DNA of 64,000 nucleotides from a plasmid: the NCBI RefSeq assembly GCF_054482525.1, contig NZ_JBTHVG010000004.1. The stretch is one strand, 5' to 3'. Shown here piece after piece: positions 62,171 through 64,000 of the stretch (position 1 is its first letter; each line of letters starts with the position of its first letter). Position numbers and translations under genes: made by a program. The notes under the pieces are model-generated. The model saw only the letters and a program-made list of their open reading frames with translations. It ran no database searches and was not told the origin of the DNA.

Positions 62171-62300
62171 AACGCTCCGCGCAAAACCGATCCATGATGG
62201 ACGATTTTGCGATGTCAGGCGAATATGCTAAATCATATGTCTGAAGCAGTGTCCAGCCCATATCTGGATAAACTGCAGTTCTGACAGGCATATAACCAGC
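62171..62300 (-). promoter_or_regulatory. conserved tra-region element, copy 2 (mini-ORF MDRFCAER ends 5 nt before the NusG-like start)
   Basis: Same 5' core and 3' block as copies 1 and 3. Confidence 0.5.
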
Positions 62301-62604
62301 AGACTCTAGTACGTTCTGTATCGGTGATTTGGCGAACTCACAGATAAAGAACGGCTAAGCACTAATATCAGCAATACAGTGGCACAGTATTGTGATACGC
62401 GAAATAAAACATCAGCACGTCAGTTCAGAGTAAGGTCGCCATATATCGGGCATGAGCCAGATACAAATAATTGGGACACCGTCTGAAGTGATTTGCTTTA
62501 TTAAAGTAACTTGTGCTTGGTGTTTATGTTTATCAATTTGGGATCGCCTGTAAAGTGCAAAATGCAATTTCCATGAAAGTGTCCCCTTTAATGGGGACAC
62601 CTGT

Positions 62605-62913
62605 TCACATTTTTTCGTTTTCTTTAGCTGTATTGCTAATCATGAAAACGAACGTTCGCATCAGCACAGCAGAGCGAAGTGCATCATATCCTTCCAGATT
62701 TAAGTTCTTCAGGCTTCGCTTCAGGTAGGTTCGTACCGTTTCGGGAGAAAGCCGACAGTTCTGAGCAATGGCGTCGTAAGGAACACCCATTGCGTAAAAA
62801 ACGCAGACTTTAAGCTGGTTTGTTGATAGCTCGGGAAACATGCCTTCCAACAGAGTGATGGCCGGGAGTTTCTGTATCAGTTGAGGTGACATAGCAAAGG
62901 TCTCCGATGACAA
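62605..62913 (-). CDS. LuxR/FixJ-type HTH transcriptional regulator (TraB-like by position)
   Basis: 102 aa with C-terminal HTH (LSPETVRTYLKRSLKNL). Confidence 0.6.
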   Translation of the reverse strand: MSSETFAMSPQLIQKLPAITLLEGMFPELSTNQLKVCVFYAMGVPYDAIAQNCRLSPETVRTYLKRSLKNLNLEGYDALRSAVLMRTFVFMISNTAKENEKM

Positions 62914-63232
62914 CTAAAAACGCTATCACTGAGTTCCTACGCTCATTGGTGATAGCCCAGACGGGGGTAGGAATACCGGCGTCATCGGAAACCGGCCAGG
63001 CTAATGCCTGCCCCGCCTGAGCTACCATAGATGACGACAAGAAATACAAGTTCCTGTCTTTATGGTATGGCAAAAAACGACGCCAAATGAAGAAATTAAC
63101 TTCTGCGCCGACGATGACTACGCGGGTTCCTACGCCCGATCACAGTTTTGCCTGTGACCAGTAAAGGGTACTTAGTATAACGCACCGAGTCAACTAACAG
63201 CTTAAAAAACATACAAAAAAGCGTCAAAACTT

Positions 63233-63365
63233 AACGCTCCGCGCCGAAGCGATCCAGGCGTGATGCTTCTGCTTTGTGGCGTTCGAACATGCTGGTCCAT
63301 ATGCACGAAACGGTGTCTGACCCTCGTCCAGACAATCCGCAGTTCTGACGAACATATGAACAAAT
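63233..63365 (-). promoter_or_regulatory. conserved tra-region element, copy 3
   Basis: Same 5' core (AACGCTCCGCGCCGAAGCGATCCA) and 3' block (CCGCAGTTCTGACGAACATAT); mini-ORF frame is preserved but begins with CTG. Confidence 0.45.
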
Positions 63366-63446
63366 ATGCTCTTGTAGAGGCTGTTGTTACACAATTGGCG
63401 GGTTGTGTAACAAATGGTTTTATCATCTAAGAATTATTCTATTTAC

Positions 63447-63712
63447 GATCGAATGATCTACAAAATGATTTTTTAAAGGTTTTTTAGATCGTTTAATTGC
63501 ATTAAAACAGAATATTATTCTGTTAGGTGGATCGGTTGTAAGATAAATGATCGTGAGCAGGACAAAAGTCGATCTTTTAATCCAAAAGAAGGATCTAAAG
63601 CAGAAAAATCTGCTTTTAAAAATAGATTTTATTTTTTTGACGCAGGTCAAGATTAACTTATTAGAGGTATCAGTGAGGAGGCACTGGAAGAGAAGAGATC
63701 GTTGTAATGCTT
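63447..63712. other. AT-rich region with a cluster of eight GATC sites
   Basis: Eight GATC counted by eye in about 265 bp, mostly as GATCG/CGATC. Confidence 0.4.
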
Positions 63713-63888
63713 TTCAAATTAACGTAAAGCGGGTATATTTCGGCTGTTATTAGCTGTGCAGAGGGTGGCACTCTGTGGAGCAAAGCGGCGAAAGTCGGAC
63801 GGCAGAATGCGCCATAAGGCATTCAGGAGAGATGGCATGTACGGGCAGTAAGTCAGAAGACTGAAGATGTTCCGGAAGCCATAAAAGG

Positions 63889-63950
63889 AAAACCCCCACT
63901 ATCTTTCTTACGAACTTGGCGGAACGACGAAAGATAGTGGGGGCCTCACA
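63889..63950. other. long perfect hairpin (15 bp stem, about 24 nt loop)
   Basis: CCCCCACTATCTTTC ... GAAAGATAGTGGGGG. Confidence 0.5.
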
Positions 63951-64000
63951 GAATACGGGTAAAGTATAATGAAACCGTACCAGAGATTCAACCCTGTGCA

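Follow-up and report, generated by a model that had tools for sequence, protein, structure and literature searches.

The DNA analyzed here is a 64,000-nucleotide stretch of plasmid contig NZ_JBTHVG010000004.1 (assembly GCF_054482525.1), called the window throughout, and its subject is a dense cluster of GATC sites in AT-rich DNA near the right-hand end, together with a long hairpin beyond it. The genes in this part are traC, traB (NusG-like), traA (62605-62892, minus strand; product a LuxR-type helix-turn-helix protein), an unannotated kilobase, and then repA/repZ from about 64046, with the start of repY placed at the equivalent of 63969 by the pESBL paper. The locus is the junction of the transfer-regulatory end and the replicon of an incompatibility group I1 (IncI1) plasmid, as the first-pass annotation of this DNA had proposed. 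The terminal 1.6 kb (62400-64000) shows 100% identity to many IncI1 plasmids and matches 1,689 PLSDB records, approximately 1,200-1,300 of which hold the region essentially full-length. The hairpin belongs to a known antisense control system, and the cluster is interpreted, on balance, as a candidate Dam-methylation-sensitive Lrp module acting on repY/repZ. The features of the cluster and of the predicted rep promoter are as follows.

63447-63700, strand-neutral: GATC cluster, eight Dam sites in AT-rich DNA
63445-63458, plus strand: ACGATCgaatGATCT, in which GATC no. 1 is the left member of a 102-bp inverted ACGATC...GATCGT pair
63485-63496, plus strand: box of GATC no. 3, tAGATCGTTTAA, with an 11-nucleotide core equal to the GATC-proximal box of pap (AAAGATCGTTTAAATC)
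63508-63522, strand-neutral: 15-bp palindrome CAGAATATTATTCTG, in agreement with the Lrp consensus of E. coli over all 15 positions
63549-63554, plus strand: box of GATC no. 5, GATCGT(G), right member of the 102-bp pair, invariant across lineages at 40 bp past the palindrome start
63570-63583, plus strand: box of GATC no. 6, CGATCTTTTAATCC, 61-62 bp past the palindrome start in all lineages
63600-63613, strand-neutral: small palindrome GCAGAAAAATCTGC with a conserved GCAG, overlapping a 2-mismatch Lrp-like match at 63601-63615
63632-63642, plus strand: conserved, -35-like block TTTTTTTGACG
63695-63706, plus strand: box of GATC no. 8, gAGATCGTTGTA, ending 10 bp 5' of the rep-promoter -35
63711-63739, plus strand: predicted repY/repZ promoter (-35 TTTTCA at 63711-63716, 17-bp spacer, -10 TATATT at 63734-63739), from a consensus scan and conservation
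63801-63828, plus strand: leader block GGCAGAATGCGCCATAAGGCATTCAGGA of the RepZ mRNA leader, invariant in the cross-lineage alignment

The eight GATC sites start at 63447, 63455, 63487, 63530, 63549, 63571, 63592 and 63697, so that the number given in the first-pass annotation stands while the stretch holding them measures 254 bp instead of about 265 bp; seven fall within 150 bp. Elsewhere the window reaches at most three sites per 150 bp and four per 254 bp, and as a whole it is depleted of GATC (174 sites versus 265 +/- 12.5 in dinucleotide shuffles), which shows that the density is not typical for the plasmid. The window-wide rate predicts 0.69 sites for a stretch of this length (Poisson P(>=8) = 7e-7), and a first-order Markov simulation of 63350-63750, with transition counts that already contain the eight observed sites, yields eight GATC in approximately 1 of 10,000 runs. 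The proposed excess over chance is thereby borne out. Most of the sites do occur as GATCG or CGATC (6 of 8), though this context is not significantly enriched relative to the rest of the window (74 of 166; p = 0.09), and the longer GATCGT/ACGATC context is modestly enriched (4 of 8 versus 28 of 166; p = 0.04). The GC content is 27-35% across 63350-63750. Two open reading frames cross the cluster (68 amino acids, 63547-63753, plus strand; 75 amino acids, 63423-63650, minus strand), and the region is treated as non-coding: a protein-coding reading was rejected on the non-triplet indels of the cross-lineage alignments and on their conservation in short motif blocks only. A permissive Rfam scan for structured RNA in the cluster returned just a chance-level mir-81 match (E = 0.91).

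The palindrome CAGAATATTATTCTG fits the consensus yAGhAwATTwTdCTr, derived by systematic evolution of ligands by exponential enrichment (SELEX), at all 15 positions, and it also fits AGAATwwwATTCT; both Lrp consensus strings are given in PMC5554404. It is the sole match to yAGhAwATTwTdCTr with zero or one mismatch in the 64 kb. Every I-complex locus compared has exactly one site of this quality, always within the module, and none occurs in three IncFII-type loci (L007, L009 and L011). In a fourth IncFII-type locus (L010), one 1-mismatch site occurs outside any such module, in the interval from the upstream regulator gene to the leader peptide. Natural variants of the palindrome are changed mostly at degenerate positions of the consensus. 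Plasmid R64 carries the form CGGAATATTATTCTG, with an A-to-G change at 63509 (R64 position 120744), a core consensus position. This variant (CGG...) is found in just 10 of approximately 950 IncI1 records, which leaves the palindrome about 99% conserved. The idea that it represents the laboratory drd11 mutation was rejected: the 10 records include several field isolates, and the change is a rare natural variant.

A low-stringency blastn search with 63380-63890 finds only IncI1-type plasmids, at identities of at least 93%, and other I-complex plasmids align just over the last 95 bp. All eight GATC sites are retained in a 93%-identical relative (L003). GATC clusters nevertheless lie at the corresponding position upstream of rep in these other I-complex plasmids, with 10 sites in CP098928 (L004), six in pK38 (L005) and in an IncB/O plasmid (L006), and five in an IncI2 plasmid (L008). 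No comparable module was found in IncFII-type, IncL/M or Yersinia IncFII-like relatives, which have a copB or repC gene there. In a MAFFT alignment the regions are distant homologues with conservation limited to short blocks. Among these are three GATC boxes, aGATCGtTTAa (no. 3), GATCGT (no. 5) and G-CGATCTnTT (no. 6), and the further blocks are the palindrome ACAGAATAtTaTTCT, GCAG, TTTTTtGAC, the promoter-like CTTTTCAAA...GGGTATATT and the leader GGCAGAATGCGCCATAAGGCATTCAGGA.

A population sample was obtained by an exact-match metagenome scan anchored on the invariant leader block GGCAGAATGCGCCATAAGGCATTCAGGA, which gave 87 loci. Eighty of these include 420 bp of upstream sequence and collapse to 65 distinct sequences; a scan of a genome-contig collection gave a single locus, so that the diversity came from metagenomes. 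The 65 sequences fall into lineage A (IncI1), lineage B (L004-like), lineage C (L006-like) and lineage D, a new sub-lineage of C. A cluster-weighted conservation profile returns the same blocks as the MAFFT alignment, and the conserved GATC sites keep the following offsets from the palindrome start.

Lineages A and B: -62, -22, +40 and +62 bp
Lineages C and D: -21, +40, +61 and +101 bp

The palindrome, the three GATC boxes and their offsets are retained across I-complex lineages that are otherwise 52-60% identical, with box no. 3 preceding the palindrome by 21-22 bp in lineages A to D. IncI2 retains the palindrome, the 102-bp pair and related boxes. In lineage D the palindrome carries a symmetric double change, CAGcATATTATgCTG, that still fits the consensus at 15 of 15 positions, and such symmetric co-variation is the pattern expected for a dyad-symmetric protein site. 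Selection within a lineage can be gauged from the 24 distinct sequences of lineage A, in which 1 of 32 GATC positions is polymorphic versus 56 of 243 other positions (Fisher one-sided p = 0.004). Of these 24 IncI1-lineage variants, 23 have the full set of eight sites.

The boxes were compared with the actual papI-papB intergenic sequence, which was retrieved for this purpose. The two Lrp/Dam boxes of pap, ACGATCTTTTAT and AAAGATCGTTTAAATC (in longer form TTTAGACGATCTTTTATG and TTAAAAGATCGTTTAAATCA), lie 102 bp apart, and the cluster boxes that match them are AGATCGTTTAA and CGATCTTTTAA. Box no. 3 contains AGATCGTTTAA, which equals the pap-proximal core at 11 of 11 positions. Box no. 6, CGATCTTTTAATCC, corresponds exactly to the GATC-distal core of pap, CGATCTTTTA, and agrees with the pap-proximal box, read as its reverse complement, at 13 of 14 positions. 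The CP098928 locus has GATCGTTTAAATC, with 13 of 13 consecutive nucleotides in common with the pap-proximal box. The sites at 63447 and 63549 form an inverted ACGATC...GATCGT pair exactly 102 bp apart, as do their counterparts in L003, L004 and the IncI2 locus L008, and a further MAFFT alignment, with pap included, put the pap boxes onto GATC nos. 1 and 5. In IncI2 the palindrome is displaced by approximately 32 bp while the spacing of the 102-bp pair is retained, and the doublet ACGATCgaatGATCT recurs there as GATCtaatGATCT. At the level of sequence, the evidence that Lrp would bind the palindrome and the pap-like boxes is strong.

The position of the module is fixed relative to the predicted rep promoter, whose context CTTTTCAAA...GGGTATATT is conserved across lineages. 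Over about 60 distinct variants from four lineages, the distance from the palindrome start to the -10 element is 225 bp in lineages A, C, D and most of B, and 224 bp in a sub-lineage of B. From lineage to lineage, the 212 bp in between show just 52-60% identity, with equal gap totals on both sides in pairwise alignments. Other distances vary: the -10 element lies 42, 61 or 67 bp from the leader block, and the palindrome lies 236, 276 or 288 bp from landmarks on its left. A promoter-adjacent GATCGT box is also present in the non-IncI1 lineages, 9-34 bp past the start of the -10 hexamer, and IncI2, which has a different transfer system, retains the module upstream of rep. The constant 224-225 bp, the promoter-adjacent GATCGT box and the retention in IncI2 together tie the module to the rep promoter. 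The conserved block TTTTTTTGACG is possibly a second upstream promoter or a factor-binding site. In pK38 (L005; LC620534.1) the distance from palindrome to -10 is 219 bp; most of what sets this sequence apart from its close relative L006 consists of single-base homopolymer deletions, and rep is broken into two open reading frames. These are probably assembly errors, and the 219-bp value is discounted for that reason.

To the right of the promoter, the hairpin and its surroundings comprise the following features.

63885-64000, plus strand: RepZ mRNA leader control region (Rfam PK-repZ), cut by the window end
63893-63943, plus strand: stem-loop I, with UUGGCG in the loop at 63916-63921, from folding and Rfam
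63886-63991, minus strand: Inc antisense RNA gene with a predicted promoter (-35 TTGAAT at 63991-63986, -10 TATACT at 63968-63963), its RNA being the complement of stem-loop I

The stem is perfect over 15 bp (63893-63907 with 63929-63943) and closes a 21-nucleotide loop, TTACGAACTTGGCGGAACGAC, that includes TTGGCG. It had been described correctly from the letters of the sequence, with its distance to the cluster given as about 180 bp; the stem begins 193 bp after the last GATC. Folding energies are -27.6 kcal/mol on the plus strand (z = -4.9) and -32.9 kcal/mol on the minus strand (z = -7.3). The PK-repZ model RF01087 matches 63885-64000 over model positions 1-117 of 150 with 144.9 bits, versus a gathering score of 44, and on the opposite strand the CopA-like model RF00042 reaches 38.2 bits, under its gathering score of 60. 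The marks of an I-complex antisense element are all present, namely the model score, a stem-loop with UUGGCG, repY/repZ just 3' of it and a promoter-like site on the minus strand. The hairpin is thus an already known element, namely stem-loop I in the leader of the RepZ mRNA, at which Inc RNA acts. Inc RNA is the antisense RNA that sets IncI1 copy number, and it is the classical determinant of both copy number and incompatibility. The suggested link to replication control is therefore right for the hairpin, on the RF01087 match, and wrong for the cluster as an origin.

A second hairpin lies on the left flank of the cluster at 63384-63413 (TTGTTACACAA-TTGGCGGG-TTGTGTAACAA), with an 11-bp stem, the loop TTGGCGGG and a T-run following on the plus strand. 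It folds at -16.9 kcal/mol (z = -4.0), and its minus-strand loop and the loop of Inc RNA both contain the 7-mer CCGCCAA. The hairpin may terminate transcription at the boundary of the transfer-regulatory side and the module, or may be a second partner in loop-loop RNA pairing.

Taken together, the motifs and their geometry suggest that the cluster is, somewhat more probably than anything else it might be, a Dam-methylation-sensitive module for Lrp, possibly also for SeqA, that tunes transcription of repY/repZ. The first-pass annotation had come close with a Dam/SeqA-controlled promoter: dense GATC sites do lie at the predicted rep promoter, and what it missed were the palindrome, the pap-type boxes and the conservation. 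Measured from the predicted repY/repZ promoter, the proposed module would extend from approximately -300 to -45, with a core formed by the perfect Lrp-consensus palindrome and the pap-type GATC boxes, to which further GATC sites would have been added lineage by lineage. Host Lrp would assemble on the palindrome together with the boxes on either side of it; complete methylation of these boxes would counteract the assembly, and bound Lrp would in turn protect them from Dam. Once a replication fork has passed, or the plasmid has entered by conjugation, the cluster would be hemimethylated and could be captured by Lrp, SeqA or both. Occupancy would then be relayed to the rep promoter and its adjacent GATCGT box through the length-constrained 212-bp spacer. 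RepZ mRNA synthesis would in this way follow the recency of replication and the nutritional state, layered on Inc RNA control.

For the direction of the effect, the analysis leans toward transient repression after replication. Levels of repZ mRNA are lower in fresh pESBL transconjugants than in donors, a result that its authors called 'unexpected' (PMC12672017). This is compatible with transient repression of hemimethylated copies, and other explanations are possible. A stronger proposal is that the I-complex plasmids (IncI1, I-gamma, K, B/O, Z and I2) carry a PapI-free heritable Lrp/Dam switch at the rep promoter, and possibly also at the transfer-regulator operon. This is a speculative extension and unlikely to be correct as it stands. 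If it were true, RepZ mRNA synthesis or transfer competence would be ON in some and OFF in others of genetically identical plasmid copies or cells, and this would offer a possible molecular basis for the unexplained transient high-frequency transfer of new IncI plasmids and for copy-number heterogeneity.

Several points weigh against the proposed module. Lrp, SeqA and differential methylation at this site are put forward from sequence alone, and the rep promoter is predicted from consensus and conservation, not mapped. A tblastn search of the window for PapI or PapB homologues gave no match better than E = 0.05, so that a full pap-type bistable switch would have no local co-regulator. The IncB/O/K-type lineages do without the 102-bp pair and instead have three AGATCGTT boxes at 61 + 61 bp. 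One metagenomic variant (L040; OLHG01000793.1) has a decayed module, having lost GATC nos. 3, 4 and 5 and having the palindrome form CAGAGTGTTGTTCTG, with the promoter and leader intact; it amounts to a natural 'knock-out' and could be informative. In pESI, which carries 63380-63690, an lrp deletion left pilV transcription unchanged (PMC5013300, data not shown), which argues only against control of transfer. The pESBL transposon study (PMC4288162) found only Hft, an element left of the cluster, enriched for transfer and reported nothing specific on the cluster stretch; only six open reading frames are listed there as essential for replication or maintenance. Finally, Inc RNA sets copy number mainly post-transcriptionally, and effects of promoter tuning may be small. 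Given this dominance of Inc RNA in copy control, the module may provide a modest tuning or a safeguard during establishment.

The cluster can also be read as a plain SeqA target, in which GATC density alone silences the rep promoter after replication and the palindrome and pap-like flanks are incidental or serve another binder. SeqA binds oriC and the dnaA promoter (PMC10073500), and the cluster ends 10 bp 5' of the predicted rep-promoter -35, which is the dense GATC at an initiator-gene promoter that marks SeqA regions. Eight to 10 GATC sites in 250-320 bp are typical of sequestered regions, versus two to four in pap-type switches, and the lineage-specific extra sites occur at varying positions and are all conserved within IncI1. 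The low repZ mRNA of fresh transconjugants (PMC12672017) fits this reading as well. The IncI1 spacings of 32, 19, 22 and 21 bp are near whole helical turns, but those of other lineages (40, 35, 6, 13 and 8; 61, 20 and 39) show no consistent helical phasing. Density alone also leaves unexplained the 15 of 15 Lrp consensus match, its symmetric co-variation, the pap-like flanks of three boxes, the exact 102-bp pair and the fixed 225-bp distance, and sequestration as the sole function is judged unlikely. SeqA sequestration as such is compatible with the Lrp/Dam module and does not exclude it. A chance or neutral feature, be it spacer DNA rich in A+T or a no longer active remnant of fimbrial regulatory DNA, would agree with the lack of a reported phenotype and with the one decayed variant, L040. 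It is very improbable in view of the GATC excess statistics, the within-lineage deficit of polymorphism, the motifs and geometry conserved across lineages otherwise 52-60% identical, and a palindrome about 99% conserved in approximately 950 IncI1 records.

A different target is conceivable, since the module lies within a divergent intergenic region. Its main role might be control of the leftward transfer-regulator operon (a NusG-like traB in most lineages, Hft/c4-traA-traB-traC in IncI1), in the manner of the Lrp/Dam-controlled traJ upstream region of pSLT, and such control could underlie transient high-frequency transfer. In L004 and L006 the nearest gene annotated on the left is a NusG-like traB homologue, with distances from GATC to the annotated gene start of 183 and 140 bp (in L006 that start probably lies about 150 bp too far upstream). 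In IncI1 the left flank can still be made out together with the old traB leader (63233-63350), and pESI retains the module beside traABC without the IncI1 rep promoter. The distances to the left-hand landmarks (236, 276 and 288 bp), however, are not conserved as the 225 bp to the rep promoter are, and IncI2 keeps the module upstream of rep with a different transfer system. Deletion of Hft abolishes traA::lacZ, which places that promoter inside Hft (PMC5801416); the lrp deletion in pESI was without effect on pilV (PMC5013300); no enrichment for transfer was seen among transposon insertions outside Hft (PMC4288162); and the pESI junction is simply a Tn21-family insertion. Leftward control as the main function is accordingly rated distinctly improbable.

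The remaining alternative, raised in the first-pass annotation, makes the cluster a replication origin, a DNA-unwinding element or an origin-auxiliary site. It draws on the AT-rich DNA, an oriC-like GATC density and three weak matches to the oriC 13-mer GATCTnTTnTTTT with one or two mismatches. Scans found no DnaA box with up to one mismatch in 63400-63750 and no perfect box in the whole 64-kb window. In the extended locus L001 a perfect DnaA box, TTATCCACA, follows the stop codon of repZ at a distance of 167 bp, where the DNA has 62% A+T, and the 2.7 kb from just inside repZ onward contain zero GATC. Origins of IncFII and I-complex plasmids lie downstream of the rep gene, whereas the cluster is upstream of it. 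The reference records of R64 (NC_005014.1) and ColIb-P9 (NC_002122.1) moreover begin inside the cluster, with position 1 at 63592 (GATC no. 7). The origin reading was rejected on the outcome of scans that covered DnaA boxes, IHF sites and 13-mers of the oriC type, and on the GATC-free ori region, and it is considered extremely improbable. The record start divides the cluster in both plasmids, leaving six GATC sites at the end of the record and two at the start. It presumably represents the left end of the sequenced ColIb-P9 mini-replicon. If mini-replicons do start at 63592, the core module (six of the eight GATC sites) is dispensable for replication, which is a further point against the proposed Lrp/Dam module.

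Several neighboring features were identified in the course of the analysis. Hft, a 270-bp element (62915-63184), maps onto a phage P1/P7-type C4 antisense RNA (RF01695, 77.5 bits, above threshold), and the features assigned there are as follows.

62945-63032, minus strand: C4 RNA (Rfam RF01695)
63119-63171, minus strand: a1/b1 target element, 32.9 bits, below threshold, just upstream of traA
63073-63158, minus strand: isrK-like element

Insertions in Hft raise pESBL transfer approximately 20-fold, and the C4 RNA identity is not given in the two papers that describe them (PMC4288162, PMC5801416). The C4 RNA may explain why insertions in Hft concentrate toward either end of it, and the coding sequence annotated over it as an 'ash family protein' is probably spurious. 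The traB leader is present as a diverged direct duplication (62171-62290 and 63233-63350; 73% identity over 45 nucleotides), both copies of which also carry GCAGTTCTGAC, at 62275 and 63339. With this duplication, and with a NusG-like traB directly left of the module in other lineages, the c4-traA cassette looks inserted into the 5' region of an ancestral traB. The idea that NusG-like coding DNA persists as a vestige left of the module was considered and rejected: blastx found nothing, and the similarity sits in the non-coding leader. In pESI-type megaplasmids of Salmonella Infantis, the IncI1 sequence ends at the equivalent of 63690 of the window (from position 2811 of the pESI-like CP092298.1), where a Tn21-family terminal inverted repeat GGGGAGCCCGCAGAATTCGGAAAAAATCGTACGCTAAG and tnpA mark an insertion that parts GATC nos. 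1-7 from the IncI1 rep promoter. Elsewhere on the plasmid, two sok-type antitoxin RNAs (RF01794; 17292-17449 and 18713-18870, plus strand; 84.6 and 132.8 bits) and an AgrB antisense RNA (RF02891; 19495-19582, minus strand; 53.7 bits), all above their thresholds, are type I toxin-antitoxin loci.

The full-text literature yielded no description of the cluster, the Lrp site or Dam/SeqA effects on I-complex replicons, in a search that did not extend to the classic replicon papers, where a prior mention is possible. The GATC module is apparently undescribed, and it would place pap/traJ-type Lrp/Dam control, possibly with SeqA-type sequestration, in a new setting. The split of the reference records at 63592 could have helped the cluster go unremarked. 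I-complex plasmids, IncI1 above all, are major carriers of extended-spectrum beta-lactamase and AmpC resistance genes, and textbooks present the control of their replication as antisense regulation of a purely post-transcriptional kind. If the proposed module is real, a transcriptional and epigenetic input is added to the antisense copy-control model. Plasmid replication, and perhaps transfer, would then be linked to nutrition as reported by Lrp and to the time since replication or conjugative entry, and the pap-type Lrp/Dam architecture would extend from fimbrial operons to plasmid maintenance.

The elements of this locus can be compared with several known systems. Among systems of Inc RNA with RepZ stem-loop I and pseudoknot (RF01087), the hairpin is a standard member in its loop motif, its repY leader peptide and its antisense promoter, with no difference noted. 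For the GATC module, one related case is the traJ upstream activating region of pSLT, where Lrp activation is said to be opposed by Dam methylation, as Camacho and Casadesus reportedly found in 2002 and 2005. It resembles the module in being a plasmid-borne Lrp site with GATC that is read without PapI, and in which hemimethylation after replication decides binding. It differs in having a single GATC in one Lrp site and in controlling transfer, whereas the module is densely clustered and linked by its geometry to the rep promoter; in the lrp data at hand, on pilV of pESI, transfer is unaffected (PMC5013300). The SeqA-sequestered oriC and dnaA promoter share with the module a comparable density, a position upstream of an initiator-gene promoter and the expectation of transient silencing after replication (PMC10073500). 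These clusters are not built around an Lrp consensus or pap-type boxes, and near-helical spacing is found only in the IncI1 lineage of the module. ColE1 likewise has Dam sites at a replication-control promoter, the GATC sites of its RNA II primer promoter (Patnaik et al. 1990; Russell and Zinder 1987, cited in PMC7736820), where hemimethylation affects replication (PMC7736820). There, three GATC sites lie inside the core promoter, with no Lrp-type architecture and no upstream module.

The closest likeness is to pap. Both have inverted ACGATC/GATCGT boxes 102 bp apart with near-identical box sequences (AGATCGTTTAA(ATC) and CGATCTTTTA), both have arrayed Lrp-type sites within divergent intergenic DNA that is AT-rich, and both place a GATCGT box just 5' of the -35 element. 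The pap region has two GATC sites versus 8-10 in the module, and the central perfect SELEX-type Lrp palindrome of the module is not present in the retrieved pap region at up to one mismatch. Local papI and papB genes accompany pap, whereas the neighbors of the module are traA and repY/repZ, and any bistability of the module is hypothetical. The target of pap is a pilin operon, and that of the module would be the plasmid replication-initiator promoter approximately 225 bp away.

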